Origin: Candidatus Azambacteria bacterium
GTDB taxonomy: Bacteria > Patescibacteriota > Minisyncoccia > GWC2-36-17 > M10-OD1-4
DNA length: 64,000 nucleotides
Reading direction: 5' to 3'
NCBI GenBank assembly: GCA_027048495.1
Contig: JALTWS010000011.1
Location: 173-64,172 of the forward strand
Positions 5,711 to 51,823 of the stretch are shown one piece after another. The notes under the pieces were generated by a model. The model saw only the letters and a list, made by a program, of their open reading frames with translations. It made no database searches and was not told the origin of the DNA. Made by a program: the position numbers and the translations under genes. Positions within the stretch are counted from its first letter, which is position 1. Every line of letters starts with the position of its first letter.

Positions 5711-5782
5711 TGCCGGGTCGTCTAATGGTAGGACGCTTGGTTCTGGCCCAAGTAATTGGGGTTCGAATCCCTGCCCGGCAGC
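5711..5782 (+). tRNA. tRNA-Gln (anticodon CUG)
   Basis: Acceptor UGCCGGG/CCCGGCA with U1-A72 and discriminator G73 (bacterial tRNA-Gln identity), D-stem GTCT/GGAC, anticodon stem CTTGG/CCAAG with loop TTCTGGC, T-loop TTCGAAT. Confidence 0.85.
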
Positions 5783-29800: not shown

Positions 29801-30268
29801 GTTGCGTTTGCTTCTGACTCTCCTTCAGGAGCAGCTGGTCCTGCAGCAGGAGCTGTTGTTATGAAAGTTGTAGTTTCTAACTCATCAAATGTTGGAAACT
29901 ACTCAGCAACGGTTAAACTTATGAACTTTGCAATGAATTCTGTCAACTTTGGAACAACAAATACTAAAGCCTTGACAGTTTACAAAGATTCAATAGCAAG
30001 TGGTAATCAAGTTGCTACAACAAACTATCCAACAGGAGTGCAAGTTAGTGATTCTGCAATAACAGATGCTAACTTCACTGATGTTGAGATAGCAGCTGGA
30101 TCTTCAAAGACATTCATCGTTACTTTGGACACCTCAGAAGCTGGAGCAACTGATTCACTTTCTGTAGGTATGTCTCAAGGTGACCTTGAGTGGAGAGACA
30201 GCAAGGTAACAACCAACATTACCACAGTTGACAGCTTACCGTTGCTAAGCAAGACATTGACTTACTAA
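26801..30268 (+). CDS. Large secreted Thr/Ser/Gly/Val-rich repetitive surface protein (S-layer protein or adhesin candidate)
   Basis: Sec signal peptide (...VISANA|AGDD), about 230-aa N-terminal domain, then about 8 tandem roughly 100-aa beta-rich repeats with the recurring pattern L-K-L-x-V-G-G-V-Q-V-G...I-R-I-N-x-G-Q; codon and GC usage differ from neighbours (highly-expressed-gene-like); terminator immediately downstream. Confidence 0.7.
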   Translation: MNALSSKATEKFKQFLAIALALVTTVVLSGIATVISANAAGDDILQEGSLIKAPDRPEVYIINTKAHGQYAGWKRHIFNPDVFNMYGHLSWDAIKIVPQSVIDMYETSNLYRADGDPRVYYLKEEGSTAVKYHIQDEAAFNAYGFSWDQVFIVNERERDYYPTGYVITATSGLPGQQNNNNNGGQQGGTTPVGSGLTVSVASDNPVADTILSDDTSNQYPQALIPFLKVNFAAGNDGDVKVTSVSFKRTGIASDSDLGNLYLYDGEMRVAEYTSFSDRVVTFTNPSGLFTVPKGTTKTITLKGDLARGSTPVSASKTIGFDLVSASDVTTDGAAVSGSFPIMGNKMATAQVSDLGYLYIDAYETTNPSSLKGDATNQELWRFSLISGNQDMEVRKIKLTMVGTISPTDIQNLKLEVGGVQVGSAQAIASDNTVIFDLSSNPIRINSGQTKIVSLKGDMNGGAGRNFYFSIQRSSDVVVYDRGYGVFVTMAKDTQTGAFGIVKPTSATSVDAGTLTLSVATDSPTGNIPASATGVTLAKFGFYASGESVKVDNLSVKCNSSNTGLYIDNVKLLLEGSQVGSTATTLQCNNSATVSFTFGNTFQVPAGTTKYLTIVADTTDSTVSDGNTIAVSLVAGSGNAQGLSTLNSISTTDQTARTVTVKSGAATVAKNTAFGDKTSSNPTGTVNASGVKIGSFVITAGAGEAIDVTQITLADDATTQLGDNFQNLMLKDSNGNQIGSTIATLNTTAGTYTFTPASPIRINAGQQFVVDVFADIKSSAADTGTSLSPVAKVNSVTATGVSTSSDASYTTAVNLQTAYIASSGNLTVTTGADTPIAQQLVMGSTDVALATFKLEANAAEDIIISDITVSDQVSSGATGTLKNLKLYVDGVQVGQTVQLSGTDSTSTYANANFSGLNLVIPRNSSKTLTVRADVTSYDDGASAGSTHKIALLVNKGGGSESITAKGASSGASITGASLDYGTSPDADQTANTMTVYATKVSVAFASDSPSGAAGPAAGAVVMKVVVSNSSNVGNYSATVKLMNFAMNSVNFGTTNTKALTVYKDSIASGNQVATTNYPTGVQVSDSAITDANFTDVEIAAGSSKTFIVTLDTSEAGATDSLSVGMSQGDLEWRDSKVTTNITTVDSLPLLSKTLTY

Positions 30269-30314
30269 GTCAATCTTGCAAAAAAGGCAAAAGCCAAAAG
30301 CTTAGCCTTGCAAA

Positions 30315-30350
30315 ACACCCCCGTTTTTACGGGGGTGTTTTGTTGTATTT
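30315..30350 (+). terminator. Strong intrinsic terminator
   Basis: ACACCCCCG-ttttta-CGGGGGTGT (9-bp perfect stem) followed by TTTGTTGTATTTTT. Confidence 0.8.
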
Positions 30351-30385
30351 TTGGGAGTTTTGTTTTAAAATGGCTAGTAAGTTTT

Positions 30386-32623: not shown

Positions 32624-32627
32624 AAAT

Positions 32628-33200
32628 ATGAAAAAGGCAATATTAATATTTTTTGTGGCAGTTGTTGCTGTTTTGGCATTTTATTTTTTTGAAAATGCCA
32701 AGGGCAAACCGTTTTTGTCAATATCTGAGATTGAAGAGCTTGCAAAAAAAGACAGCAATATGGAGTTTTATGCAAAAGAACTTAAAAGGGCGGTAGAAGA
32801 GTTCAAAGAAGACGATCCGAAATCGTATTCTGCTTTGGGACTTGCTTGGAAAGGTGTGGCAGACCAGACAAACAATGAAAAATACTACAAAAATGCGCTT
32901 TTGGTTTATCAGGAGGCAATTGATTTAACTAACAGAAAAAATACATTGTTTATTTTAAATGCTGGAAACATGGCATCTTATTTGGGAGATTACGAGCTTG
33001 CAGAAAAGTATTATGAGGAAGCAACCTATGTTGCTCCCGGGGACCAGGACGGATATATAAAGCTTTATGAGCTTTACAGATACAAACTTGGAAATCCAAA
33101 AGATAAGATAATAGCCGTGCTTGATAGAGGAATAGACAGAATGGTAAATCCAGCATATCTTAAACAGCTAAAAGACGCTTATTTAAGCGAAGAAAAATAG
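32628..33200 (+). CDS. Membrane-anchored TPR-repeat protein
   Basis: N-terminal TM (ILIFFVAVVAVLAFYFF) then TPR-like helices (YYKNALLVYQEAIDL..., LGDYELAEKYYEEATYVAPGD). Confidence 0.5.
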   Translation: MKKAILIFFVAVVAVLAFYFFENAKGKPFLSISEIEELAKKDSNMEFYAKELKRAVEEFKEDDPKSYSALGLAWKGVADQTNNEKYYKNALLVYQEAIDLTNRKNTLFILNAGNMASYLGDYELAEKYYEEATYVAPGDQDGYIKLYELYRYKLGNPKDKIIAVLDRGIDRMVNPAYLKQLKDAYLSEEK

Positions 33201-33201
33201 C

Positions 33202-35469
33202 GTGATTGCATTAGATTTATTAAAAATAGCAAAATATTTTCTGTTTGCGTCTGCTTTTGTCCCTGTTTTGGTTTGGGATAAGTTTTTGTATCCTTTTGTC
33301 ACTTTAAGGGCAAGCGCATTTTTATTTTTTGTTGAATTGGCTTTGCTTGCTTTTTTGGTTTGGGTGTTTTTTTATCAAAAAGGAAGTTTTACGTTCAAAA
33401 AAAGCTGGCTTTTTTTGTCTTTTTTTGCATTTTTTGTTATTAGCTTTGTATCTGCTGTTTTTGGTGAGTCATTTTTTGTAAGCTTTTTTGGAACGATAGA
33501 AAGGTGGTGGGGAGTTTTTACTCTTTTGCATTATTTGGTGTTTTTCTTTTTGGCAAGAGCATTGTTTGAAAAAGATGACTGGATGACATTTTTTAGGCTT
33601 TTTGTTTTTGTGTCTTTTTTTGTTTCTTTGATTGGGCTTTTGCAAAAAGCAGGGTTGGGGCTTTTTGCTTTTTCTGGGGGCAGGATTATAGGAACTTTAG
33701 GGAATGCCGCTTACTTTTCCGTATATCTTTTACTTAACTTTGCTTTGTCTTTGTATCTTTTTTTCTCAGAAAGGCATAAAAAATATAGCTTTTTTTATGT
33801 TGCAGTAGCGTTTTTAAATTTTGTTGCATTTTTGTTTACAGGAACAAGAGGAACTTTTTTAGGATTTATTTTTGGAGTATTTTTAGTTTCTTTTTTGTAT
33901 ATTTTTTTGGGTAAAAGCAAAAAAGTAAAAGCATCTTTTCTTTTTGTTTCTTTTTTGATTACAATTTCTGTTTTGGTTGCATTTTTGGCAAAAGACACTA
34001 ATTTTGTAAAAAATACTCCGTTTTTGAGCAGGATTTCCACAATATCTTTGGAAGGAGGAAGTATAAGCACAAGATTTATAAGTTGGCAAGCGGCTTTGGA
34101 GGGTTTTTTTGATAATCCTTTTTTGGGAGTTGGTCCGGAAAATTATAATATAGTATTTAATAAATATTTTAAGTCAGACTATTATCTTTATGCGGCGTCT
34201 GAGCCTTATTTTGACAGGGCGCACAACAACTTTTTGGACATACTTGCAACTTCAGGTATTTTTGGGCTTTTGTCTTATCTTTTTATGGTTTTTTTAATAT
34301 TTTATATTTTGGCAAGGCTTTACAGTCAAAAAAGGATTCAAGAAAAAGAGCTTTTGTTTTTTGTGTTTGTATTTTCTGCTTACTTTGTCCATTTATTTTT
34401 TGTTTTTGATGATATAACTTCATTTTTATATTTTGTGTCGTTTTTAGCATTTTTGGATTTTTTATTTTCAGAAAGAAAAATATTTTCCGAACAAGAAAAT
34501 AAAAGTTTTGATGCTTTTAAAAAAACAGTAGTTTTTGCTGGTATTGTTTTGGTTATTTTTTCTAGTTGGCAGTATAACCTAAAAGTTGCTTATGCTTCAA
34601 AAATAGCAAATGATGCTTTTTTGGAAGATCAAAAAGGAAATTTAAAAGAGGCAGTAGATTTATACTTAAAGTCTCTTTCGCTTAATTCAAAGCCCCAAAA
34701 AGATATAGTGTATTCTTTTGTTGATTTTTTATATAGCAAATTTCCGTTGTATGAAAAGGATATAAAAATTTCAAAAGATGATGATTTGGCGTATCAGAAA
34801 GGGCTTTTGGAAGCCAAAAAATACATAAAAAAGCAAATAGAGTTAAACCAAAAAGATGCTCTGCTTTTTGTGAAGCTGGCAAATATAAACAGCGCTTTGT
34901 ATGTTGTTAAAAAAGATATAAGTTTTACAAAAAAAGCAGAGGAAGCATTAAAGACTGCTATATCTTTAAGCGAGGATAGGCCTCAGTATTACCATTTTTT
35001 GGTTGATTTGTATATTTTGTCAGGGCAAAATCAAAAAGCGCTTAAAACAGCAGAATTTGCATTAAAAATGAATGAAAAATACAATGCCAGCTATTTTTAT
35101 GTTGCAAAAGCGTATATTGCCCAAAAAGAGTATGAAAAAGCAAAAGAATACTTGGACTTGTCTATGGAGAAAAAATATCTACCTTCTTTGGGAGAGGTGG
35201 TGTTTTTTGCTTCTGAGATGGAAAAGTCGGGAAAATACCAATATGCCGCAGATATTTATAAAAAATACTTGCAAAGAAATAAAAAGGATGCTTTGCCTGC
35301 AGTTAGGCTTGTTATTTTAAGCTTAAAAATGAGCAACGAAAAAGATGCTATAATGTATGCTAAGATGTCAGCTGATATTAACCCAAGCTTAAAAAAAGAT
35401 GTTGACTATATAATATCAGAAATTAAAAAAGGCAATAAGGAAAATATTCTTAAAATACTAACACAATGA
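33202..35469 (+). CDS. Wzy_C-family O-antigen ligase/O-OTase-like membrane protein with C-terminal TPR, paralog 2 (GTG start)
   Basis: RFISWQAALEGFFDNPFLGVGPENY...FDRAHNNFLDILATSGIFGLLSY; C-terminal TPR repeats. Confidence 0.7.
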   Translation: MIALDLLKIAKYFLFASAFVPVLVWDKFLYPFVTLRASAFLFFVELALLAFLVWVFFYQKGSFTFKKSWLFLSFFAFFVISFVSAVFGESFFVSFFGTIERWWGVFTLLHYLVFFFLARALFEKDDWMTFFRLFVFVSFFVSLIGLLQKAGLGLFAFSGGRIIGTLGNAAYFSVYLLLNFALSLYLFFSERHKKYSFFYVAVAFLNFVAFLFTGTRGTFLGFIFGVFLVSFLYIFLGKSKKVKASFLFVSFLITISVLVAFLAKDTNFVKNTPFLSRISTISLEGGSISTRFISWQAALEGFFDNPFLGVGPENYNIVFNKYFKSDYYLYAASEPYFDRAHNNFLDILATSGIFGLLSYLFMVFLIFYILARLYSQKRIQEKELLFFVFVFSAYFVHLFFVFDDITSFLYFVSFLAFLDFLFSERKIFSEQENKSFDAFKKTVVFAGIVLVIFSSWQYNLKVAYASKIANDAFLEDQKGNLKEAVDLYLKSLSLNSKPQKDIVYSFVDFLYSKFPLYEKDIKISKDDDLAYQKGLLEAKKYIKKQIELNQKDALLFVKLANINSALYVVKKDISFTKKAEEALKTAISLSEDRPQYYHFLVDLYILSGQNQKALKTAEFALKMNEKYNASYFYVAKAYIAQKEYEKAKEYLDLSMEKKYLPSLGEVVFFASEMEKSGKYQYAADIYKKYLQRNKKDALPAVRLVILSLKMSNEKDAIMYAKMSADINPSLKKDVDYIISEIKKGNKENILKILTQ

Positions 35470-37571
35470 GTGAATATACTTTAAAAAACATAATAAAATT
35501 TGTGCTTGCTGTGTCTTTTTTTGCTCCGCTTATTGTTGCAAAAGGCTTTTTCTTTCCTTTTATAGTTCCAAAGACTATATTTTTCCAATCTTTGGTTCAG
35601 GTTGCGCTTTTGCTTTACATATTTTTGGTTATTTCAAACAAAAAATATTTGCCAAAGCTGGACCTTTTGTCAAAAAGCGTTTTGGTTTTTTATTTTATTT
35701 ATGTTATGTCGGCTATATTTGGAGAAAATATATTTAGGAGCTTTTTTGGCAACTTTGAGAGAATGCTTGGCGTTGTGAATTTAACTCATTTTGTTGCTTT
35801 ATTTTTTATATTAAAAGGCATTTTAAAAGATAAGCAGGAATGGATTTTTATGTTTCGCTGTTTTGTTTTTGCCGGTTTTTTGGTTGCTTTGTATGGAATT
35901 GCCCAAAAGTTTGGTTTCTCATTTTTGTTTGAATCCAAAGATCCAAGAATATCATCAACCATAGGCAATGCCGCTTTTTTTGCGGCGTATATGCTTTTTG
36001 TCTTTTTTATTTCTATTATTTTAATTCAAAAAGATAAAGTACAGGCAAGGCCTTTTTATTATACTGTTTTGCTTTTGAGCATGTTGTCAATTTATCTTAG
36101 CGAAACAAGGGGCGCTATTTTGGCGCTGGTTTTTTCTTTGTTGTTTTTGTTGGCGCTTTTTGTTTTAAAAAAGAAAGATGAGCTTGCAAGTATAACTTTA
36201 CAAAACAAAAATAAAATACTTGCTTGGATTTTTGGCGTGCTAGTTTTGTTTTTTGCTGTTTTTTTGATAAATCAGGATGCTTTTTATGGGCCGATAAAAA
36301 GAATAATGTCTATATCTTTTTCTGATGCTACTGTAAAAACAAGGATAGTATCTGCAAAAATAAGCGCAGAGGGAATAAAAGAGCATCTAATTTTAGGATG
36401 GGGACCGGAAAACTACAATCTTCTTTTTGATAAGTATTATGACCTTAGAATGTACCCTCAGGAAAGCTGGTTTGATCATGCGCATAATATAATATTTGAC
36501 ACACTGTCCAACTCAGGAATTTTAGGGCTTTTGTCTTATGTTTTTGTTTTTGTTGCTCTTTTTTATCTGCTTTTTGCTTATACAAAGTCAAACAAAGATG
36601 ACTACAAAACAGCGTATGTCATAGTGGCAATGATGATAGCTTATTTTTTCCAAAACCTTTTTGTTTTTGATGCTTTGGCAACTTATTTGCCTTTCTTTTT
36701 GGTGTTGTCTTTTGCTTCTTTTTTAACTTCACAAAAAGAAGAAGATAAAATAGAGAACAAAAAATTGCAGGTTCCTATCCAAGCTTTTGTGTTGCTTTTT
36801 TTAGCGTTTTGGTTTTTGTTTTACAATACAAATGTAAGGCCTGCGCTTGCTTCAAAATATCTTATTGAAGGTTCTTTGTATTTTGAATATGGAAGATATG
36901 ATTTGGCATTTGAATATTTTGAAAAATCCTATGAAAAATCTTTACAAGGAAAGCCGGAGATAGCAACAATGATGGCAGAGAAGGCCAACCAGATATACAA
37001 AAAAGAAAACATATCAAAGGAAGTTAAAGATTTTTTTGTCCAAAAAGCGATTCAAAAAGCAGAAGATGCGCTAAAGCGGGAGCCAAAAAACACTAGATAT
37101 TATATGACCTATGCTAGTCTATCTAACGCAAAAAGAGATGACAGGGAGTTTTTAAAAAAGCTGGATAAAATGATGGAAGAAAATTTACCAAAAAGTCCCA
37201 AAAAGCCTATTTATTATTTTCAGTGGTATCAAATAAATGTATTTTTAGGAGATTTTAAAAAAGCAGAGCAAATTATTAAAAAATCGTTAAGCCAGAAGGT
37301 TACTTACAATGGGACTTTGATATTAGCGAATTTTTACAAGGGTCAAAAAAGAAACGAAGATGCAAAAAATACTTATATGAACTTTGTTCAAAAAAGACAA
37401 GACGCAACAGTCCAGCAACTTGTCAGGATAGCTGTTGAGCTGGCAAGAATTGGGTATGACAAAGAAGCAATTGATGTTGCAAATACAATTTCAAAAAGAT
37501 ACGGATATTCGGATAATATAAGTAGTTTTGTGCAGGATATAAAAAATGGAAGATTTAACCAAAAACAATAA
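35466..37571 (+). CDS. Wzy_C-family O-antigen ligase/O-OTase-like membrane protein with C-terminal TPR, paralog 3
   Basis: RIVSAKISAEGIKEHLILGWGPENY...FDHAHNIIFDTLSNSGILGLLSY; ATGA overlap with paralog 2; C-terminal TPR. Confidence 0.7.
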   Translation: MSEYTLKNIIKFVLAVSFFAPLIVAKGFFFPFIVPKTIFFQSLVQVALLLYIFLVISNKKYLPKLDLLSKSVLVFYFIYVMSAIFGENIFRSFFGNFERMLGVVNLTHFVALFFILKGILKDKQEWIFMFRCFVFAGFLVALYGIAQKFGFSFLFESKDPRISSTIGNAAFFAAYMLFVFFISIILIQKDKVQARPFYYTVLLLSMLSIYLSETRGAILALVFSLLFLLALFVLKKKDELASITLQNKNKILAWIFGVLVLFFAVFLINQDAFYGPIKRIMSISFSDATVKTRIVSAKISAEGIKEHLILGWGPENYNLLFDKYYDLRMYPQESWFDHAHNIIFDTLSNSGILGLLSYVFVFVALFYLLFAYTKSNKDDYKTAYVIVAMMIAYFFQNLFVFDALATYLPFFLVLSFASFLTSQKEEDKIENKKLQVPIQAFVLLFLAFWFLFYNTNVRPALASKYLIEGSLYFEYGRYDLAFEYFEKSYEKSLQGKPEIATMMAEKANQIYKKENISKEVKDFFVQKAIQKAEDALKREPKNTRYYMTYASLSNAKRDDREFLKKLDKMMEENLPKSPKKPIYYFQWYQINVFLGDFKKAEQIIKKSLSQKVTYNGTLILANFYKGQKRNEDAKNTYMNFVQKRQDATVQQLVRIAVELARIGYDKEAIDVANTISKRYGYSDNISSFVQDIKNGRFNQKQ

Positions 37572-38230: not shown

Positions 38231-38878
38231 ATGAACAGAACAGCAATATTTGCGGCAATAGCTGTCTTTGCTGCGTTGGCTTTTGGGTTTTCAGGCAAAG
38301 ATAGCCAAACAAGCCAAATTTCCCAAGAAAATAATGAAAAAAACAGTTCTGCCAATCAGGAAATTGCTGATATTGACTTAAGCGGGTGGGATACATTTTC
38401 TTCAGATGAATATGAGTTTAAATACCCAAAGGAGGCATTGTTTGATAATGTAGCGGTTCTTGGAGTTGAAAATTCAAGGGTTAAATTTTTTGGAGAAAAG
38501 CAAGTAAAAAAACAAAAAGCAAATATGAGCGCTTTTGACCATTTTGCTGTTGAGGACGGATATGCTTTTTGGATAGCAAAAGTTAAATCAAAAGAAGTAG
38601 ACGCAAAAAGCTATGCGGAAAGTGAGCTTAAAAAACATAAAATAGAATGCAAAAAAGAAAAATCAAGCCAAATAAGCGATATAAAAAATGTAAAAATTAA
38701 CGGAAAGGATGCTTATTCTTTTTCTGTGAAAAACTGTTTTGGCAATTACGACTTGTCTTATCTTGAAAATAACGGAAGCTTGTATAAAATAAGCCAGTTT
38801 TATGTTGGAGATGAAAATGATAAGGAAAAATATTTCAAAACAACAAACGCAATACTTTTGACTTTAAAATTTAAATAA
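38231..38878 (+). CDS. Secreted/lipoprotein-like hypothetical protein
   Basis: Signal peptide MNRTAIFAAIAVFAALAFGFSG; 215 aa, no recognisable motif. Confidence 0.4.
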   Translation: MNRTAIFAAIAVFAALAFGFSGKDSQTSQISQENNEKNSSANQEIADIDLSGWDTFSSDEYEFKYPKEALFDNVAVLGVENSRVKFFGEKQVKKQKANMSAFDHFAVEDGYAFWIAKVKSKEVDAKSYAESELKKHKIECKKEKSSQISDIKNVKINGKDAYSFSVKNCFGNYDLSYLENNGSLYKISQFYVGDENDKEKYFKTTNAILLTLKFK

Positions 38879-41363: not shown

Positions 41364-42407
41364 ATGTTGGATATTATAAAAACAACTAACAATTTAATAA
41401 GCAAGCTTTCAAAAAAACAGCAGGACGTTTTGAAAAAAAGGTTTGGTCTTTCTGATGGAAGAAAAAGGACTTTAGAAGAGATAGGAAGAGAATACGGAAT
41501 AACAAGAGAGAGAGTAAGGCAAATAGAAAACGATGCAAAAAAAGCGCTTTTGAAGCAAGAGGAATTTTCTTTTTTGAGCCCTTTGTATGATGAAATTGAG
41601 ATGTTTATTGAACAAAAAGGAGGTTTTATTGTTGAGCATCATATTTTGGGATCTGATTTGTCTAGATTTTTTGGAAAAAACACAAAAGAAAAAAAAGCAG
41701 AAACTTATATGTATTTTTTGTTGTCAGTAAATCCTAAGTTTATAAAGCATCCAGAAACTCCAGATTTTCATAGCGTTTGGACAACCAAAAAATCAACTGT
41801 CCAGCTTGTAAAAAAATCTCTTGAAGCTTTAATAAAGAAAATGGAAAGCAAAAAAAACACGGTTTCCAAAGATGAGCTTATAAGCTTGCTTTCTGAATAT
41901 GTCTCTCACATAAAAGATCCAAATGCGCTTGAGTCTTACATTTGCGCATCAAAAAGCATAGGGTCAAATGTTTATGGGGATTATGGCCTTAAACATTGGC
42001 CTGAAATATCTACCAAAGGGGTAAGAGACAAAGCCTATTTGGTTTTAAAAAAGCATGGAAAGCCAATGCATTTTAGGTTTGTTGTTGATAAAATAAATGA
42101 AAAATTTAGCCAAAACGGAAAAAAAGCCCATCCACAAACGGTTCATAATGAACTTATAAAAGACAAAAAGTTTGTTTTGGTAGGAAGAGGAACTTATGCT
42201 TTGGCAGAGTGGGGGTACAAACCAGGAACCGTATCTGATGTCATAAAAAGGGTTCTTCAGGAGAGCGGAGAGCCAATGCATAAAGAAGAAATTATAAAGG
42301 CAGTTATGAAAGAAAGAGATGTTAAGGAAAATACTGTGTTGTTAAATTTGCAAAATAACCAAAATTTTGAGAAAATAGAAGATGGAAGATATATTTACAA
42401 AGCATAA
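41364..42407 (+). CDS. DNA-binding protein with sigma-70 region-4-like HTH plus two HARE-HTH-like domains
   Basis: N-terminus LSKKQQDVLKKRFGLSDGRKRTLEEIGREYGITRERVRQIENDAKKAL is sigma region-4-like; C-terminal ...GKPMHFRFVVDKI...VLVGRGTYALAEWGY and GEPMHKEEIIKAV...EDGRYIY are HARE-HTH-like. Confidence 0.45.
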   Translation: MLDIIKTTNNLISKLSKKQQDVLKKRFGLSDGRKRTLEEIGREYGITRERVRQIENDAKKALLKQEEFSFLSPLYDEIEMFIEQKGGFIVEHHILGSDLSRFFGKNTKEKKAETYMYFLLSVNPKFIKHPETPDFHSVWTTKKSTVQLVKKSLEALIKKMESKKNTVSKDELISLLSEYVSHIKDPNALESYICASKSIGSNVYGDYGLKHWPEISTKGVRDKAYLVLKKHGKPMHFRFVVDKINEKFSQNGKKAHPQTVHNELIKDKKFVLVGRGTYALAEWGYKPGTVSDVIKRVLQESGEPMHKEEIIKAVMKERDVKENTVLLNLQNNQNFEKIEDGRYIYKA

Positions 42408-42410
42408 TCT

Positions 42411-43661
42411 ATGGAGGTAAGTTTTTCAGATTTTTTAAACATTTTGACAAGCTGGGGATGGGTGGTTGCGCCTATCCTTCTTTTTTTGTTGTGGAAAGAG
42501 CTTTGGATGAATTATATAAAACTAAAATATGACTTGAGCTTAAATTGGGTTGTTTTGGAGATAAAGTTTCCTCAAGTTGTGGATCAATCTCCAAAATCAA
42601 TGGAACAAGTTTTTGCTGGGCTTTACTCAATAAAAAGCGGAGCGAATTTAATAGAAAAATACATACAAGGAAAGCATCAACCGGAAATATCTTTGGAGAT
42701 TGTAAGCATACAAGGAGCAATTCATTTTTTCGTTAGAACCCCTGATCAGTACGCTTCTTTGATAAGATCACAAATTCATGCACAGTATCATGATGCAGAT
42801 ATACAAGAAGTTGATGATTATACTTTTAATTTGCCAGTACAAATTCCAAATGAGGAGTATGACCTTTGGGGAACAGAACTCATTTTTACAAAAGAAGATG
42901 CCTATCCAATAAGGACATATAAGCATTTTAAAGAAGAAATCACAGCAGATGTTCAAGGAAGATATTTTGTTGATCCTATGGCATCTTTGATAGAGGTTTT
43001 ATCCGATATAGGAGAGGGGGAACAGATATGGATACATTATATGATAAGGCCAGCAAGCGATTATTGGCAAAAAAAAGGTAAAGATTTAATAGCAAGGATA
43101 ATGGGAACAAAAAAGAAAAAAACCACAAGCAATGTCCCTGAAGAGGTGTTTGAGTTTTTTCAGGATTTGATTGGAGTTTTTTTTGGAAAAGTTCCAGAGA
43201 ACAGAAAAAAAGTTTCAGAAGAAAAAAAAGAAGAAAAAAAACTTACTCCAGGAGAGCTTGAAGTTATAAAAATAATAGAAGACGGGCTTGACAAGCAAGG
43301 ATTTCATACAAACATAAGAATACTTTACATTGCTAAAAGAGATAAGTTCTCAAGAGCAATTATACCTGCTATTTTGGGAACTTTTAATCAGTTTTCTTCC
43401 TCTAACTTAAACGGATTTAGGCCAAATCCTAAGGTAACTCCGGGAGTTAACTACTTTTTTGTTAAGACAAGAGACTATTTAAGAAAAAGAAATTTATACA
43501 GAAAAGCAAGAAGGAAGCTGTTTGTAGGAGAGGGAATTATTTTAAATACAGAAGAGCTTGCAACTGTATATCATATTCCAAATGTTGTTGTTGAAACCCC
43601 TTCTTTACCAAAAGTGGAAGCAAAGAAAGTCCAACCTCCTTCTGAGCTTCCTACTTTATAA
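42411..43661 (+). CDS. Membrane-anchored hypothetical protein, partner of the downstream ATPase
   Basis: One N-terminal TM (WGWVVAPILLFLLW), 416 aa, K-rich linker; 4-nt gap from the upstream gene and 5-nt gap to the downstream ATPase (operon). Confidence 0.4.
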   Translation: MEVSFSDFLNILTSWGWVVAPILLFLLWKELWMNYIKLKYDLSLNWVVLEIKFPQVVDQSPKSMEQVFAGLYSIKSGANLIEKYIQGKHQPEISLEIVSIQGAIHFFVRTPDQYASLIRSQIHAQYHDADIQEVDDYTFNLPVQIPNEEYDLWGTELIFTKEDAYPIRTYKHFKEEITADVQGRYFVDPMASLIEVLSDIGEGEQIWIHYMIRPASDYWQKKGKDLIARIMGTKKKKTTSNVPEEVFEFFQDLIGVFFGKVPENRKKVSEEKKEEKKLTPGELEVIKIIEDGLDKQGFHTNIRILYIAKRDKFSRAIIPAILGTFNQFSSSNLNGFRPNPKVTPGVNYFFVKTRDYLRKRNLYRKARRKLFVGEGIILNTEELATVYHIPNVVVETPSLPKVEAKKVQPPSELPTL

Positions 43662-43666
43662 AAGTT

Positions 43667-45364
43667 ATGCAAGATATAATACCATTTGCAAAAACAAACT
43701 TTAGAAACAAAGATCAAATATTTGGAATAAAAACCGACGATAGAAGGCGGCATATGTATGTTATTGGAAAAACAGGAACAGGAAAGTCAACTCTTTTAAG
43801 AAATATGATGATATCAGATATAAGGACAGGCAATGGAGTGGCTGTTATTGATCCTCACGGAGAGTTTGCTGAATCTATACTTGATTATGTTCCAGAGCAT
43901 AGGATAGGCGATGTTGTTTATTTTAATCCGGCTGATATAGAAAATCCAATAGCTTTCAATATTGCAGAAAGCGTTGATCCTTCTCAAAGGCACTTGGTAG
44001 CTTCTGGGCTTATTGGTATATTTAAAAAACTTTGGGCAGACTCTTGGGGTCCTCGTCTTGAGTATGTTTTAAGAAATACTATTCTTGCGCTTTTAGAAGA
44101 TCCGGAAAGCACTCTTTTGGGTATTATGAGGATGCTTTCTGACAAAGAATATAGGAAAAGTGTTGTTGAAAAAGTTACTGATCCGGTTATTAAGGCGTTT
44201 TGGGAAGAAGAGTATGCAAAATATACCCAAAAATTTGAAGTTGAAGCAATAGCTCCAATTCAAAATAAGGTAGGACAATTTTTAACCAATCCTTTGATAA
44301 GAAATATAGTGGGTCAAAGAAAATCTGCTATAGATATAAGAAAAATAATGGATGAGAAAAAGATACTTGTGGTTAACTTATCAAAAGGAAGAATAGGAGA
44401 GGATACAGCAAAGCTTTTGGGAGCAATGATGATAACAAAAATTCAACTTGCCGCAATGTCAAGGATAGATACAGAAGAGGAAGAAAGGCAGGATTTTTTT
44501 GTTTACATAGATGAGTTTCAAAATTTTGCAACCGAATCTTTTGCCGACATTCTTTCAGAAGCAAGAAAATACAGGCTTAATTTGATACTTGCCCATCAAT
44601 ATATAAATCAGCTTGAAGACACTGGTGTAAAAGAAGCAGTTATGGGAAATGTTGGCACTTTAATCCTTTTTAGAATTGGAGCGGAGGATGCTGAATTTTT
44701 TGAAAAGGAATTTGCCCCTGATGTTGATGTTTACAGTCTTGTGAATCTGCCAAATCATAAAATATATCTTAAACTGATGATAAATGGAGTTGCTTCCAAA
44801 GCGTTTTCTGCAGATACACTTCCTCCAATTGCGCCAGAAAATATTAGCTTCAGGGAAAAAATAATAGAGCATTCCAAAAAAATGTACAGCTCAAAAAAAG
44901 ATGAGGTTGAAAAAGAGATATCTGAGTGGTCCAAGCCAGTGTCAGAAAAAGAAAAGGAAAAAAAGAATATAAAGATGTATAACGCAGAATGTTCAAGATG
45001 CAAAAAAGCAACTCAAGTGCCTTTTGAGCCGGATCCAGAAAGGGAGGTTTTTTGCAAGGAATGTTATGCAGATTTTCAAAGGGAACAGGCAAAAGCAAAA
45101 AACGAAGCAAAAAAGCAAAGCCAAAAAAAGATGCCAAAACTTCCAACTCCTGAAAGAAAAAACAAAATCCAAGAAGGACAAATAAAGATATTAAATGAAG
45201 AAGAAATAAAAAAAGAAGGGATTTCTTTGTCAGAAGCTTTAAGTATGGAGCCGATTATGTTTTCATCAAAAAAAGATCAAAAAGACAAAAAAAACAAAGA
45301 AGATAAAAATAAAGAAGAAAAATCTTCTGGAGTGCTAAAGCCGGGAGACACGCTAAAGTTTTAA
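43667..45364 (+). CDS. FtsK/HerA/VirD4-superfamily P-loop ATPase (T4SS coupling-protein-like / DUF87-like) with C-terminal Zn ribbon and K/E-rich tail
   Basis: Walker A GKTGTGKST at residue about 33, VIDPHGEF, Walker B FFVYIDEFQNFA, LILAHQYINQL (TraG/TraD-type motif), CSRCKK...CKECY zinc ribbon. Confidence 0.65.
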   Translation: MQDIIPFAKTNFRNKDQIFGIKTDDRRRHMYVIGKTGTGKSTLLRNMMISDIRTGNGVAVIDPHGEFAESILDYVPEHRIGDVVYFNPADIENPIAFNIAESVDPSQRHLVASGLIGIFKKLWADSWGPRLEYVLRNTILALLEDPESTLLGIMRMLSDKEYRKSVVEKVTDPVIKAFWEEEYAKYTQKFEVEAIAPIQNKVGQFLTNPLIRNIVGQRKSAIDIRKIMDEKKILVVNLSKGRIGEDTAKLLGAMMITKIQLAAMSRIDTEEEERQDFFVYIDEFQNFATESFADILSEARKYRLNLILAHQYINQLEDTGVKEAVMGNVGTLILFRIGAEDAEFFEKEFAPDVDVYSLVNLPNHKIYLKLMINGVASKAFSADTLPPIAPENISFREKIIEHSKKMYSSKKDEVEKEISEWSKPVSEKEKEKKNIKMYNAECSRCKKATQVPFEPDPEREVFCKECYADFQREQAKAKNEAKKQSQKKMPKLPTPERKNKIQEGQIKILNEEEIKKEGISLSEALSMEPIMFSSKKDQKDKKNKEDKNKEEKSSGVLKPGDTLKF

Positions 45365-45378
45365 TTAAAAAATAAAAA

Positions 45379-45411
45379 CCGCCCCCAAAAACATGCAGAG
45401 GGCGTTTTTTT
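45379..45411. terminator. Bidirectional terminator between the convergent ATPase and efp genes
   Basis: CGCCC-15-nt loop-GGGCG with T7 on the + strand and a T-rich tract on the - strand. Confidence 0.5.
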
Positions 45412-47076: not shown

Positions 47077-48687
47077 ATGAAAAATACCGGAATTAATTTT
47101 AAAGAATATCTCGGAAGCGAGCCAGCTTGGTCTTTGTCTTTCAGGCAAAGTGGCGAGCTGAGAGCTAAACCCCGACGAGCAGCTGGAGCGAGGAGAGGGT
47201 GGTTCTTTAAAATTAATTCCGGTATTTTTTTAATTCTTTTGTTCTTTCCTTTTTTTGCCAGCGCTCAAGTTGTTGTAAACGAAATTGCTTGGATGGGGAC
47301 TGAAAATTCCGCAAACGATGAATGGATAGAGTTAAAAAACACAAGTTCAAGTACGGTTGATCTTTCCGGCTGGATTTTGCAAGCGCAGGATGGCAGTCCG
47401 AAAATTGAGCTATCCGGAAGTGTAGAATCTTTTGGATATTTTTTGCTTGAGAGGCAAGATGATAGTTCTGTACCTGGTATTGCAGCGGACTTGATATATA
47501 CCGGTGCGCTTTCTAACTCTGGCGAAGTTTTAATCTTAAAAGATGCCAACGGCGTTGAAGTTGACAGAGTGGACGGTTCAAACAGCTGGGAGTCTGTAGG
47601 AGGAGATAATACAACAAAAAAAACTGCCCAAAAAACAGAAAACGGATGGGCAACAGCAACATCAACTCCAAAAGCCCAAAATAATTTTGATAAAACCAAA
47701 AGAACGGAACCACAAAAAGAACAAAAACAAGATGTAAAAAATGGAAATGCTTTAAACAACAAGCAAAAAGAAAATTTTTCAGGCAATATTTTAATAAAAG
47801 CAAATGCCGGAGAAAATATAGTTGCTCAAGTTGGACAGAACATATTTTTTGATGCCTCTTTGTCTGAGGGTAATATTTCTGAGTTTGTTTGGAATATGGG
47901 AGACGGTAATACAAAATCTGGCAAAAGCTTTTTGTATTCTTATTCTTTTCCGGGAAGGTATCTGGTTACTCTTTTTGCAAAAGGAGATGGGATTCAGTCA
48001 AAAGATCAGATAGATGTTGTTGTTTATCCTGTTGGCATTTATATTTCTGAGTTTTTCTATCAGGAAGAAAAATCTTGGGTTGAGCTTTACAATAGCTCTG
48101 ATAGCTTTGTTGATTTGTCTTTTTATAAAATAGCAAACGAAAAAAATGTATTTGAGATTCCAGAGGGGACGTTTATCGCTCCTTTGTCTTATTTAGTTTT
48201 TTCCGAAGAAGCGCTTGGCTTTTCTATTTTGAAAAGTGGAACTCTTATGCTTTTGTACCCAAATGGACAGCCAAAAGATAAAGTAGAATATGAATTTGAA
48301 AAAATAGGGTTCTCAGCTTCAAGAAAAAACCAAGATGAGTTTGTTTTGACAAAAAACAAAACTCCAGGATTTGCTAATGTTTCTGTTGGTTCTTTTTTTG
48401 AAAGTGAAGATCCAAACAAAAAAGAAGTGTTAAAAGACAAAGCTGTGCCAAGAAGCCTAGTAAAAGAAGACGAAGCTCATTTTGTAAAAGTTGGCGGACA
48501 AAAGAGCTTTTTGGTTATGCCAGCCTCTGCTAAACTTTTGCCGGAAGTTGCAGATCAAAAACCGATGAAAGTAAATATCCAAGCAAATTTAACATCTTTT
48601 TTTGATGCTTCTTGGTTTTTTTATGTTGTTTTTGCTTTTTTGATTGTGTTTTTTGGAGCATTTTTTCTTGGAAGAAAATTTAAGTAG
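47077..48687 (+). CDS. Secreted lamin-tail-domain (LTD) x2 plus PKD-domain protein with C-terminal TM; first 51 codons (through 47229) fall inside the 150-bp MITE-like element, so the true N-terminus is uncertain
   Basis: VVNEIAWMGTENSANDEWIELKNTS...DLSGW (LTD), PKD-like GQNIFFDASLS...WNMGDGN, second LTD-like YISEFFYQEEKSWVELYNSS, C-terminal hydrophobic anchor. Confidence 0.6.
   Translation: MKNTGINFKEYLGSEPAWSLSFRQSGELRAKPRRAAGARRGWFFKINSGIFLILLFFPFFASAQVVVNEIAWMGTENSANDEWIELKNTSSSTVDLSGWILQAQDGSPKIELSGSVESFGYFLLERQDDSSVPGIAADLIYTGALSNSGEVLILKDANGVEVDRVDGSNSWESVGGDNTTKKTAQKTENGWATATSTPKAQNNFDKTKRTEPQKEQKQDVKNGNALNNKQKENFSGNILIKANAGENIVAQVGQNIFFDASLSEGNISEFVWNMGDGNTKSGKSFLYSYSFPGRYLVTLFAKGDGIQSKDQIDVVVYPVGIYISEFFYQEEKSWVELYNSSDSFVDLSFYKIANEKNVFEIPEGTFIAPLSYLVFSEEALGFSILKSGTLMLLYPNGQPKDKVEYEFEKIGFSASRKNQDEFVLTKNKTPGFANVSVGSFFESEDPNKKEVLKDKAVPRSLVKEDEAHFVKVGGQKSFLVMPASAKLLPEVADQKPMKVNIQANLTSFFDASWFFYVVFAFLIVFFGAFFLGRKFK
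47080..47229. mobile_element. MITE-like element: 27-bp perfect terminal inverted repeats flanking a 96-nt GC-rich core
   Basis: 47080-47106 AAAAATACCGGAATTAATTTTAAAGAA is the exact reverse complement of 47203-47229; the core is about 55% GC in a roughly 32% GC genome. Confidence 0.6.
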
Positions 48688-50045: not shown

Positions 50046-50107
50046 AGCCAATCGGACTGCACCCATTTAACACATTTTTGTGAATTTGGGATGTCCTCCG
50101 ATTGGCT
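50046..50107 (+). other. Long stem-loop (11-bp perfect stem, 40-nt loop) followed by a T-tract
   Basis: AGCCAATCGGA...TCCGATTGGCT then TTTTGGTTTTTG; preceded by the 17-mer TTGTGGATATTTATTTG that also follows dus. Confidence 0.55.
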
Positions 50108-50134
50108 TTTTGGTTTTTGTGGTATAATGTTTTT

Positions 50135-51823
50135 ATGGGAAGATTTTTTGTTTCAGTAGCAATATTTTTATTTTTTGCATTTCCATACAATGCAGATGCA
50201 GAAGCTTTGGGAAATGTTAAGATATTTTACACAGACCCTTCTTTTTCTGAAGATGGCAAAACTCAAGCAGTCGCAACGCTAAGATATATTTCAGAAAGGG
50301 CGTATTTTTATGTAGATAACAGTTATTTTGACGCTTTGAGGGGGCAAGAAGGGTTTTTCTTTATGAATTTTATAAAAGAGCTTGCCAGAGAATATGACAA
50401 TAACATATATCCTAAGTTAACTGAAAAGTTTGGAAGCATAAGAGAACCGGGGATAGACAATGATCCTAAAATTTATGTTTTACTTTTGCCTCTTAAAGAA
50501 AATGTTGGGGGATACATAAATACTGCAGACGGGTATCCTAAAGAAAGAATTGAAGACGGCAGAACAAACCAAAAAGAAATTGTTTATTTAAATATAAACT
50601 CCAAGCGGGAAAATTTAAAAGCTTTTTTAGCGCATGAGCTTCAGCATCTTATTACTTTTAATCAAAAAGATATAAAAAGAAAAGTTTCTGATGATGTGTG
50701 GTTAAACGAACTAAGAAGCGAGTATGCGCTTGATGTTTTAGGATATAACCTGCCTTATCAGGGGAGTTTTTTGCAGGAAAGAGTCAGAAGATTTTTAAAA
50801 AATCCATGGGATTCTCTGGTTGAGTGGAAAAATGAATCTTATGATTATGCTTCTGTCAGCTTGCTTGGGCAGTATATTGCAGGTTATTTTTCTGATGATA
50901 TTTTTAAAAAAATGCTTCAAAGCGAAAATATAGGAATAAAAAGTATAAATGACGCTTTATCAGGCTATAACTTTTCTGGAACATTTAAAGACTTATTTTT
51001 AAATTGGCAAATTGCAAATTACTTAAATGATGCTTCCTTTTACGGAAAAGAGTATGGGTATCAAAATGAAAACTTAAATTTTAAAATTAATCCAAAAATT
51101 TTTCATAAAATAGAAAAAAAAGAACAGGAATTTTCTTATCTTGTTAAAGATTGGCAGATATCTTTTGTTGACTATGAATTTAACTCTCCTTTTTTGGGTA
51201 TAGAAGTTTTACCAGAAAAAAAAGATAATAAATTTTCTATTGCTTATGTTTTAAATAAATTTGATGGAACAAAAACAATATCAAAATTTAACTTGGAGGG
51301 AGACTCAAAAAACATAGCAATAGATAATTCAAAAAATAATGTAAAAAGCGTGACTTTGTTTATCCTTTCAAGAAAAAAGACAGGAGGATTTTCCGATAAT
51401 GAACCAAAAAGAAAAATTTTAGTTAAAGTCAAACCATCTCAAACAAAAGATATATTTTTTGCATCTGATTCTGTTTTGGTAAATTTTCCTGACGGTTCTT
51501 TGATAAGACCAGCATGGGATTTTAAAGTTTATGTTGTTAAAGGAAAATATATAAGGCATATACCAAATCCAAAAATTTTAAGTTTCTATAAAGGCGATGT
51601 TAAGATTGTTACAAGAGAAGAGTTTGATAACCTAAAAGAAAGCAAGTTGATAAAAAAGGAAGGCGACTTTAAAGTGTATGAAGTGGACAAGTCAGGAACA
51701 CTGCATTGGCTTGATATGACAGCAGAGGAGTTCAGAAACAGCGGAAGATCTTTTGACGCCGTGTTTGAGGTAACAGAAGAAGAGTTTTTGTTTTATAATA
51801 TAGGAAATAAAATAACAAAATAA
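50135..51823 (+). CDS. Secreted HEXXH zinc-metallopeptidase-like protein
   Basis: Signal peptide MGRFFVSVAIFLFFAFPYNADA; LAHELQHLITFN (HEXXH) with downstream NELRSEYA Glu. Extended -10 TGGTATAAT ends 6 nt before the ATG (leaderless candidate); alternative ATG at 50102. Confidence 0.5.
   Translation: MGRFFVSVAIFLFFAFPYNADAEALGNVKIFYTDPSFSEDGKTQAVATLRYISERAYFYVDNSYFDALRGQEGFFFMNFIKELAREYDNNIYPKLTEKFGSIREPGIDNDPKIYVLLLPLKENVGGYINTADGYPKERIEDGRTNQKEIVYLNINSKRENLKAFLAHELQHLITFNQKDIKRKVSDDVWLNELRSEYALDVLGYNLPYQGSFLQERVRRFLKNPWDSLVEWKNESYDYASVSLLGQYIAGYFSDDIFKKMLQSENIGIKSINDALSGYNFSGTFKDLFLNWQIANYLNDASFYGKEYGYQNENLNFKINPKIFHKIEKKEQEFSYLVKDWQISFVDYEFNSPFLGIEVLPEKKDNKFSIAYVLNKFDGTKTISKFNLEGDSKNIAIDNSKNNVKSVTLFILSRKKTGGFSDNEPKRKILVKVKPSQTKDIFFASDSVLVNFPDGSLIRPAWDFKVYVVKGKYIRHIPNPKILSFYKGDVKIVTREEFDNLKESKLIKKEGDFKVYEVDKSGTLHWLDMTAEEFRNSGRSFDAVFEVTEEEFLFYNIGNKITK

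Follow-up and report, generated by a model that had tools for sequence, protein, structure and literature searches.

In type IV secretion systems (T4SS), VirB4 (for example TrwK of plasmid R388) has a C-terminal P-loop motor that is kept at the membrane by its N-terminal domain. Type IV coupling proteins (T4CPs) such as VirD4 and TrwB are recognized by an N-terminal transmembrane domain in the same chain as the nucleotide-binding domain and by linkage to relaxase and mating-pair-formation genes. In Sulfolobales, the chromosomal CedB and CedD have been shown to join a transmembrane segment, a partial domain resembling the VirB4 N-terminal domain and an ATPase, and to be required for DNA import with no relaxase (PMC11868833). 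In Patescibacteria, VirB4 was found in 2417 of 3035 genomes and 5713 VirD4-like T4CP homologues in 2918 of the 3035, with only 148 of the 5713 lying near virB4 (Quinonero-Coronel et al., 2025, PMC12102498). The essential T4SS of Saccharibacteria has no recognizable coupling protein or relaxase (Wang et al., 2023, PMC10633639). Here we describe a three-gene operon on the chromosome of a Candidatus Azambacteria bacterium, located in a 64-kb window (the whole stretch of DNA analysed, 64,000 nucleotides; assembly GCA_027048495.1, contig JALTWS010000011.1, positions 173 to 64,172 of the forward strand). Gene 1 encodes a DNA-binding protein with a sigma-70 region 4 and HARE-type helix-turn-helix (HARE-HTH) domains, gene 2 a membrane-anchored member of the domain of unknown function DUF8128 (PF26449), and gene 3 a soluble P-loop ATPase. 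Genes 2 and 3 very probably constitute a VirB4/VirD4-clade ATPase whose N-terminal domain is supplied in trans. The explanation of the operon as a whole, that this split VirB4-architecture ATPase acts as a membrane-docked motor for DNA translocation or coupling, is given a probability of about 50%.

The relationship between genes 2 and 3 is clearest from homologues in which they occur as one protein. PHROG 5156, a family of 824 positions with no assigned function, is matched by gene 2 at positions 53-312 (9.2e-22) and by gene 3 at positions 387-819 (1.3e-70). Members of this family include Bacillus phage G gp156 (825 residues) and SPO1 gp27.4 (906 residues). In pairwise BLASTP, residues 88-332 of gene 2 align with residues 46-270 of gp156, and residues 32-391 of gene 3 align with residues 381-755. 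An 883-residue ‘DUF87’ protein from a plasmid of Shouchella clausii is covered in the same order by gene 2 (93-413 onto 57-313) and gene 3 (5-454 onto 324-797). The mapping is colinear and the junction in the Shouchella protein is about 10 residues long; genes 2 and 3 therefore represent a single protein that has been divided in two at a domain boundary. The fused proteins of Bacillus phages G and SPO1 and of Bacillaceae plasmids span 825-906 residues, and in them the chain runs from the C-terminal tail of the gene 2 part straight into the motor. They are true homologues with the same domain order as gene 2 plus gene 3, at an identity of only 21-29%. Unlike the azambacterial pair, they are single polypeptides carried on mobile elements and have no zinc ribbon and no N-terminal hydrophobic helix, which the split forms possess both here and on a Pontibacillus megaplasmid. 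A tblastn search with gene 2 against 50,697 phage records returned nothing; the link to phages comes only from the PHROG profile and the pairwise BLASTP alignments.

Gene 3 is the motor half. All the gene 3 motifs listed in an earlier note, made from the letters of this DNA, are present: the Walker A and Walker B motifs, VIDPHGE (residues 60-66), the LILAHQ sensor (306-311; LILAHQYINQL at 306-316), the paired CxxC motifs and the charged tail. Walker B (FFVYIDEFQNF in full, 277-287) is followed by a conserved SEARKYR (297-303). Across 37 diverse homologues, D282, E283, F284, Q285, R300, K301, Y302 and Q311 are invariant around Walker B and the sensor, as are the Walker A residues given in Table 1. 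The zinc ribbon of these homologues shows no variation at C442, C445, F453, P455, D456, R459 or C463, and 92% conservation of C466. The tail (99 residues, 25 K/R and 18 D/E) contains the motif (I)SL.EA....P..F at 519-532 and often ends in G.LKPGETVKF; S520 and L521 are each conserved at 92%, P529 at 76% and F532 at 81%. The description of gene 3 as soluble also stands, as no hydrophobic segment was found in it (hydropathy peaks at 1.06 for the full length and at 0.70 close to the N-terminus).

Gene 3 matches TrwB_AAD_bind (6.7e-16), DUF87 (3.1e-9), TraG-D_C (9.2e-6) and zf_Tbcl_2 (3e-12) in Pfam above their cut-offs. The first three had been proposed in the earlier note together with AAA_10 (PF12846), which fell short (16.4 vs 27.5 bits). 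Among solved structures, its only relatives by sequence are TrwB (phmmer 2.9e-9) and DotL. By fold, the highest scores were obtained with the VirB4 C-terminal domain (25.2), the DptH/DndH C-domain (24.8), TrwB (24.3), DotL (22.0) and Cag-beta (20.2), followed by HerA (19.3 and 17.9), EccC (15.6), TcpA (15.5) and FtsK (15.1). The motor thus belongs to the VirB4/VirD4 clade of the FtsK-HerA superfamily, is about equidistant from the two name-giving proteins, and is neither HerA nor FtsK. A HerA-NurA pair for end resection or defence, which the note had named as one outcome that would overturn its proposal, was ruled out by this fold ranking and by the lack of a NurA-like partner: gene 2 has no match to NurA, gene 3 is closer to VirB4 and TrwB than to HerA, and the combination of HAS-barrel, NurA and HerA as closest relative was not found. 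The alpha/beta motor and gamma winged helix that FtsK and SpoIIIE hold in one protein were likewise not found.

Gene 2 accounts for the other half. A protein of 416 residues with a single N-terminal transmembrane segment had been predicted, and one hydrophobic helix is indeed present: the Kyte-Doolittle 19-residue maximum is 1.89 at residue 9, and residues 5-43 form one long helix in the AlphaFold2 (AF2) model. Of 66 gene 2 orthologues, 52 pass this crude hydropathy test as well, and W17, P21 and L24 are conserved in this region. The topology is predicted from sequence to be N-out/C-in because lysine-rich residues follow the helix. The helix is reminiscent of VirB3-VirB4 fusions. Gene 2 had no match in local Pfam, NCBIfam and PADLOC libraries. 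The PF26449 model is not in the local Pfam copy, and the assignment comes from precomputed annotation in protein databases, where it is given for the protein of the window and for all 120 homologues listed.

The AlphaFold model of gene 2, built with 48 homologues, has a mean local confidence (pLDDT) of 82.4 and a predicted template-modelling score (pTM) of 0.78. Besides the long helix at its N-terminus it comprises alpha/beta domains, a K/E linker that is disordered, and a flexible tail at the C-terminus in which residues 395-409 have pLDDT <50. The C-terminal motifs NTEELATVYHIP and EAKK..PP..LP include the invariant residues E382, L383, A384, H388, P390, P409, P410, L413 and P414. When this model was searched with Foldseek, the 13 best matches were all TrwK/VirB4 chains (E-values 8e-5 to 8.5e-4, probability >=0.99). 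We infer from the model that the match is to the VirB4 N-terminal domain, because gene 2 has no P-loop and one of the matches is a 457-residue TrwK fragment. An N-terminal domain ahead of the motor, as expected of the VirB4 fold, is thus found here on a separate gene. The idea that gene 2 could serve as the VirB4 N-domain and membrane anchor in trans is borne out by the agreement of two fold searches and the natural fusions. The suggested search with PF03135, the Pfam model of the VirB4 N-terminal domain, gave no match on gene 2; the likeness is seen by fold only, and the gene 2 alignment profile found nothing among PDB sequences at E-values up to 10.

How does this pair compare with the described systems? 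Genes 2 and 3 follow the same two-part plan as VirB4. They differ from it in being split over two genes, in having no detectable sequence similarity in the N-domain and scores far below the cut-offs of the VirB4 models, in being unlinked to VirB3, VirB6 and VirB8, and in the zinc ribbon and charged tail that gene 3 adds. The operon also coexists with a genuine VirB4 in most Patescibacteria (PMC12102498). The best sequence matches of gene 3 are to T4CP models, and its nucleotide-binding domain is that expected of a T4CP. A helical insertion in the NTPase domain (about residues 105-230) and a C-terminal tail as in TraD are further T4CP-like features. Gene 3 departs from T4CPs in having no transmembrane domain in its own chain, with Walker A already from residue 34; the anchor is gene 2, with one transmembrane helix rather than two. 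It further departs from them in its setting, as there is no relaxase, mating-pair-formation gene or T4SS near the operon, which is chromosomal, near-universal and vertically inherited.

CedB and CedD of Sulfolobales are the closest functional analogue. Like genes 2 and 3, they are chromosomal and combine a transmembrane helix, a VirB4-N-domain-like domain and a VirB4/HerA-type ATPase, and they share the division of a VirB4 function over two gene products. CedB and CedD are, in contrast, two full ATPases that each carry part of the N-domain rather than a split between N-domain and motor. They are also classed with HerA, are inducible by ultraviolet light and are linked to CedA and Ups pili. The NCBIfam CedD model matches the P-loop region of gene 3 at 2.9e-8, over only about 60 residues around Walker A. 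The EccE-EccC pair of type VII secretion gives fold scores much weaker than VirB4; EccC has three ATPase domains and its own transmembrane segments, and no other component of that system is present.

The operon is widely conserved in Patescibacteria. Homologue searches returned at least 8000 matches each for gene 3 and gene 1 and 2657 for gene 2, from Azam-, Portnoy-, Terry-, Yanofsky-, Moran-, Wolfe-, Niyogi- and other Parcubacteria-type candidate phyla. Among the species representatives of GTDB, the gene 2 family is present in at least 581. An exhaustive profile search gave 3637 clusters of DUF8128 at 50% identity, the best 150 of which are all of the split form (344-564 residues). Gene order was counted in the best 80 species-level Patescibacteria loci, using for each gene those with enough flanking sequence. 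The next gene upstream of gene 2 is gene 1 in 72 of 75 loci, and the next one downstream is gene 3 in 66 of 68, with a median spacer between genes 2 and 3 of about 25 nucleotides. The operon usually lies between secDF and efp (secF upstream in 41/61), and the few exceptions are real rearrangements. In three distant genomes, precomputed annotation gives secD, secF, the three genes, efp, udg and murC in that order. A chance arrangement is excluded, because the same gene order recurs in nearly all 80 loci. The earlier note had called the split configuration unusual and had allowed that genes 2 and 3 might never occur together outside this genome. They do occur together, and for this lineage the split form is the rule, in a ubiquitous syntenic operon beside secDF and efp.

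Median identity to the proteins of the window is 59-60% for gene 3, 53% for SecD, 46% for SecF, 39-40% for gene 1 and 38% for gene 2; the motor is thus more conserved than SecD. Comparison of the identities of genes 1-3 with those of SecD and SecF locus by locus placed nearly all loci at about equal distance from the window, and thus speaks neither for nor against vertical descent. The three genes are a vertically inherited core operon of the chromosome of Parcubacteria-type Patescibacteria under strong constraint. The adjacency counts and the secDF-efp synteny therefore identify a core operon, and neither a mobile element nor a HerA-NurA pair nor a defence island.

The same data bear on an origin as the remnant of an integrated conjugative or phage-derived element, in which a domesticated coupling protein would have no current function of its own. 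Relatives do occur on plasmids (449 records) and in phages (54 records, 49 of them from Bacillus), and the NCBI name of the gene 3 family is T4SS DNA-binding domain protein. The catalytic residues are nevertheless invariant, the conservation of gene 3 exceeds that of SecD, at least 60 species share the chromosomal synteny, and the composition equals that of the flanks. No integrase, relaxase or repeats are present at the locus, and a scan of 2.9 million viral contigs gave one fragmentary match only. A remnant is largely refuted by the conservation, with composition and synteny also against it, and we consider it extremely unlikely.

A role in anti-phage defence, with an ATPase kin to mad8 of the MADS system, DptH/DndH or HerA, would draw on model matches: gene 3 matches PADLOC mad8 at 2e-20 and HerA models at up to 7.8e-11, and region 4 of gene 1 matches the MzaA and PglW models. 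These matches cover only the generic ATPase core or sigma region 4, however, and gene 2 has no match in PADLOC. No nuclease, methyltransferase or other effector is adjacent, and in dozens of species the genes keep one order next to secDF and efp, at the GC content of the flanks, unlike a defence island. Synteny already indicates that presence and absence are not patchy. A defence function is thus very unlikely, and the reading as a defence island through the mad8, DptH and MzaA matches was rejected, as these matches are to generic cores alone and the locus has a constant housekeeping setting.

The housekeeping setting (secDF, efp and murC, with ftsX elsewhere in the window) could also point to a chromosomal DNA pump that is independent of any T4SS and resembles FtsK, in which an anchored hexameric motor together with the winged helix of gene 1, as analogue of FtsK gamma, would clear or segregate DNA at division. 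The near-universal and strongly conserved operon, its spread beyond that of VirB4, and a combination of transmembrane anchor, motor and winged helix-turn-helix that would mirror the domain logic of FtsK all agree with such a pump. The anchor has, however, the fold of a VirB4 N-domain, which in known systems docks under a secretion channel, and the plasmid and phage relatives lie in transfer-type contexts. In addition, passages of papers on Saccharibacterium TM7x mention ftsK. A pump of this kind is therefore quite improbable.

The reading as a DNA-translocating or coupling motor draws further on gene 1, whose predicted anatomy of a sigma-70 region 4 HTH and two HARE-HTH-like domains was confirmed by Pfam (Sigma70_r4 9.6e-15; HARE-HTH 3.1e-14 in two stretches). 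Weak HTH-type matches (Trans_reg_C, DUF7669 and DUF4777) occur at about residues 289-330, and the middle region has no Pfam match. The family alignment contains an invariant TRERVRQIE and an invariant QTVHNELIK...GRG.YAL..WG. NCBIfam sigma models, including RpoD and SigB, align to gene 1 only via C-terminal region 4 (their last 50-70 positions) and far below their cut-offs. Judged from its sequence, gene 1 is neither a complete sigma factor, because region 2 of the region 2 and 4 pair that defines sigma-70 factors is absent, nor a canonical delta subunit of RNA polymerase (RNAP). The delta subunit RpoE of low-GC Gram-positive bacteria has a single N-terminal HARE-HTH followed by an acidic tail. 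In gene 1 the HARE-HTH is instead C-terminal and duplicated, with no acidic tail and with sigma region 4 at the N-terminus.

Could gene 1 be a mere transcriptional regulator or RNAP-associated companion, with genes 2 and 3 as the missing T4SS coupling ATPase for protein effectors? The patescibacterial T4SS has no relaxase and has been proposed to be a protein exporter (PMC10633639, PMC12102498), the long charged tail of gene 3 carries short motifs like those of adaptor-binding tails, and gene 1 almost reaches the RNAP delta model TIGR04567 (40.7 bits, cut-off 42). The near-constant linkage of gene 1 (72 of 75 loci), which contains DNA-binding modules only, speaks against effector coupling, as does the pairing of the fused relatives of SPO1 and the Shouchella plasmid with the DNA-binding Replic_Relax. 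The T4CP homologue is, moreover, non-essential where the T4SS is essential, and the operon has no linkage to T4SS genes. Coupling of protein effectors is accordingly regarded as improbable.

For the DNA motor, the following arrangement may be envisaged. Co-transcribed with genes 1 and 3, gene 2 would provide a cytoplasm-facing domain shaped like the VirB4 N-domain, tethered to the membrane by one helix. It would recruit a ring of gene 3 subunits to the membrane, much as the N-domain of VirB4 holds its motor under the T4SS channel. DNA could be recognized by gene 1, which consists solely of DNA-binding modules (sigma region 4 and the two HARE-HTH domains), and the tail or zinc ribbon of gene 3 may add contacts with adaptors or nucleic acid. 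ATP hydrolysis would then drive DNA or nucleoprotein to or through a membrane channel, most plausibly the chromosomal T4SS of Patescibacteria with neither relaxase nor coupling protein. Parallels for such a role would be CedB and CedD in archaeal DNA import and the fused homologues that stand in a coupling-protein position by Replic_Relax on Bacillaceae plasmids. As to the single steps, DNA as the cargo is given slightly less than even odds, and docking to a T4SS is doubtful.

Several observations weigh against this reading. The Foldseek TM-scores of gene 2 against TrwK/VirB4 are low (about 0.35), neither of the two fold searches gives an aligned VirB4 range, and hhalign of the gene 2 profile against plasmid VirB4 returned a probability of 0.1%, that is, no link at the sequence level. 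None of the curated NCBIfam cut-offs for VirD4, TraD and VirB4 is reached by gene 3, with 56.8 vs 250 bits for NF045973 (CD1115), 46.6 vs 366 for TIGR03743, 26.1 vs 521 for TIGR02759 and 29.8 vs 643 for the VirB4 model TIGR00929. The earlier note had proposed to look for VirB6/VirB8-like, pilus and comEC genes: no VirB4, VirB6, VirB8, pilin, relaxase, integrase or comEC was found in the 64-kb window, none of the channel genes VirB3, VirB6 and VirB8 occurs there or in the flanks of related loci that were examined, and the annotated flanks of related loci L001-L006 and L009 hold no relaxase or mating-pair-formation genes. Coupling to a T4SS is thus without linkage support, because genes for a T4SS channel, a pilin, a relaxase or competence are missing from the window and from those flanks alike. 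Gene 1 might act as a general companion of RNAP whose sole tie to genes 2 and 3 is the shared operon. Lytic phages, in which conjugation would make no sense, carry fused relatives as well. T4CP homologues (96% of genomes) are commoner than VirB4 (80%), which argues that at least some of them act without a T4SS. Finally, the earlier note had likened the genes to systems implicated in the epibiotic lifestyle; in the sole published genetic result, the T4CP homologue of S. epibionticum (a Saccharibacterium) was shown not to be essential for epibiotic growth and was perhaps exapted (PMC12102498), while the T4SS genes are essential; this protein is a homologue from the family and not necessarily the orthologue of gene 3.

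The fused relatives provide a second view of the family. On the Shouchella plasmid, a Replic_Relax gene follows immediately after the fused gene, and the plasmid also encodes TcpC, TcpE, an 837-residue AAA_10 (VirB4-type) ATPase, a lytic transglycosylase/C40 peptidase (VirB1-like hydrolase), ParM, a primase and a topoisomerase. Its annotation lists no further coupling protein and no relaxase, though the PLSDB table may be incomplete; the fused gene is in the position of a coupling protein. In phage G, a VirB4-like ATPase lies directly upstream of gp156. The fused forms of SPO1 and the Shouchella plasmid resemble the patescibacterial operon in being paired with a small DNA-binding partner. That partner is Replic_Relax and lies downstream, whereas in Patescibacteria it is gene 1 and lies upstream. 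Comparison of the gene 1 profile with Replic_Relax by hhalign detected no similarity, and the partner was therefore replaced, not inherited. In SPO1, the block gp27.9-gp27.3 (L008, 1774-7284) comprises an actin-like ALP gene, four tiny open reading frames (ORFs), the fused gp27.4 and the Replic_Relax gene gp27.3. It resembles a plasmid-style segregation or transfer module, in a lytic phage.

By tblastn, gene 3-like genes were found on 449 plasmids (among them Bacillus 154, Streptomyces 114, Staphylococcus 32, Sulfolobus 12, plus haloarchaea), 372 of which are typed as non-mobilizable. Two plasmids carry other arrangements. The Pontibacillus sp. megaplasmid NZ_CP062975 (L092, 5986-11306) has a split gene 2-like gene with its own N-terminal transmembrane helix, followed by three out-of-frame gene 3-like fragments of a decayed motor gene. 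About 1.2 kb past the last fragment lie a sigma-factor-like HTH protein (Sigma70_r2 and r4_2) and then a JAB-domain protein. The order of gene 2 and gene 3 is like that in the candidate phyla radiation, but the sigma-like gene is downstream, not upstream. The closest relative of gene 3 outside these phyla is on plasmid NZ_CP081110 of Sulfitobacter mediterraneus (L090, 6986-8173; 42% identity over residues 2-382). It is a stand-alone ATPase of 395 residues with no zinc ribbon, flanked by a recombinase and transposases, and no gene 2-like sequence was found within its 15-kb locus. This suggests horizontal spread of the motor alone.

A wider reading would make the three genes an ancient DNA-translocation machine that defines the Parcubacteria-type Patescibacteria, with its own membrane channel or the relaxase-less T4SS, in which the sigma-r4/HARE-HTH protein would replace the relaxosome. 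The gene 2 and 3 family, with its VirB4-type N-domain and VirD4-like motor, would then form a deep branch of its own, the third next to VirB4 and VirD4, and Bacillus phages as well as Gram-positive and archaeal plasmids would have acquired it repeatedly. This is speculative and rather unlikely. If true, the third branch would preserve a record of the divergence of the two T4SS ATPases, and would bear on their origin.

The ATPase family is already known and has been counted among the ‘T4CP homologues’, and its partner is known as a Pfam DUF. Gene 3 corresponds to one of roughly two ‘orphan T4CP’ homologues per Patescibacteria genome. The average of about two comes from 5713 T4CP-like genes in 2918 genomes (PMC12102498); gene 3 is one of the two and a second paralogue the other. 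A full-text search for ‘DUF8128’ returned no papers, and the partner genes are not described in PMC12102498 or PMC10633639. As far as the searchable literature shows, it is new that the two proteins are halves of one VirB4-like protein, that DUF8128 has the fold of the VirB4 N-domain, that the sigma-r4/HARE-HTH protein is a fixed third member, and that the three form a syntenic core operon whose relatives in SPO1, phage G and Bacillaceae plasmids are fused.

Much of bacterial diversity belongs to the Patescibacteria, and their chromosomal T4SS is essential in the one lineage tested. One ‘orphan T4CP’ now gains an anatomy, as the motor half of a protein nearly always encoded with its N-domain partner and a dedicated DNA-binding protein. 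DUF8128 gains a structural assignment, and an annotation curiosity becomes a three-protein complex that is testable in cultivable systems. The module is also linked to uncharacterised genes of the model phage SPO1 and of Bacillus plasmids, which lend themselves to genetics. Should DNA be the cargo, the operon would bear on how auxotrophic epibionts acquire or exchange nucleic acids.

The features of the operon are collected in Table 1. The three co-directional genes proposed in the earlier note were recovered as plus-strand ORFs. Of the two spacers, given there as 4 and 5 nucleotides, the second is correct (AAGTT) and the first is in fact 3 nucleotides (TCT).

Table 1. Coordinates of the three genes, their domains and motifs, and the downstream hairpin, in positions of the 64-kb window.
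Feature	Position	Strand	Basis or detail
Gene 1, 347-residue DNA-binding protein	41364-42407	+	ORF listing, Pfam, family alignment
Sigma-70 region 4 (4.2-type HTH), gene 1 residues 12-62	41397-41549	+	Pfam PF04545
Two tandem HARE-HTH winged helices, gene 1 residues 222-345	42027-42398	+	PF05066, best stretch 222-283, second stretch reported
Gene 2, 416-residue membrane-anchored DUF8128 (PF26449) protein with VirB4 N-terminal-domain-like fold	42411-43661	+	
Single N-terminal transmembrane helix, gene 2 residues ~9-31	42435-42503	+	Hydropathy, AF2 helix
Gene 2 C-terminal motifs NTEELATVYHIP (381-390) and EAKK..PP..LP (~403-414), flexible tail	43551-43658	+	
Gene 3, 565-residue soluble VirB4/VirD4-clade P-loop motor with helical insertion, zinc ribbon and charged tail	43667-45364	+	
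Walker A GKTGTGKS, gene 3 residues 34-41	43766-43789	+	G34, K35, T36, G37, G39 and K40 invariant
Walker B FFVYIDEFQ, gene 3 residues 277-285	44495-44521	+	
CxxC-x17-CxxC treble-clef zinc ribbon, gene 3 residues 436-468	44972-45070	+	PF23477 (zf_Tbcl_2) 3e-12; TIGR04272 6.5e-13, above cut-off
Disordered K/E-rich tail of gene 3	45071-45361	+	pLDDT <50 at 488-521 and 531-559
GC-rich hairpin with flanking A/T runs, between gene 3 and convergent efp	45382-45401	not assigned	

The hairpin after gene 3 was called terminator-like on the minus strand, and CCGCCCCCAAAAACATGCAGAGGGCG followed by TTTTTTT is terminator-like on the plus strand too. Judged from these letters, it is probably a bidirectional terminator that closes the operon. 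No terminator-like sites were called at the gene 1/2 and gene 2/3 junctions. A promoter scan found 12 candidates where 13.0 were expected from shuffled sequence; there is no enrichment and no promoter is claimed. The GC content of genes 1-3 is 0.33-0.34, equal to that of secDF, efp and the whole window.

The remainder of the window is housekeeping in character, with a release factor, ftsX, dus, glmS, tgt, xseA, alr, clpB and Wzy-type proteins as well as secDF, efp, udg, murC, murB, obg and atpB. Its only RNA genes are tRNA-Thr(CGT) at 1751-1824 and tRNA-Gln(CTG) at 5711-5782. The ORF at 26801-30268 (1155 residues) has no significant Pfam match (only DUF4082, E 0.005) and spans the one stretch of the window in which GC rises to 0.39 and GC skew falls to about 0.02 (28001-30000); it may encode a surface protein of large size or be foreign DNA. 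It is followed at 30308-37571 by three consecutive large membrane proteins (771, 755 and 701 residues) with Wzy_C (O-antigen ligase-like) domains, the first two with C-terminal TPR repeats, a triplication unusual for so compact a genome. Two further ORFs, at 50102-51823 (573 residues) and 38231-38878 (215 residues), have no Pfam match at E-values up to 0.01; the latter, flanked by a NUDIX gene and secD, has a signal-like hydrophobic segment at its N-terminus. The 536-residue protein at 47077-48687, encoded two genes past the operon, combines two Lamin Tail Domain stretches and a PKD domain with a hydrophobic anchor at its C-terminus, and is not at the equivalent position in L001. Nearly all genes of at least 150 residues are on the plus strand, GC skew is positive throughout, and the cumulative skew climbs monotonically to 6.6. 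Strand bias and skew are consistent with the whole window lying on the leading strand of one replichore.

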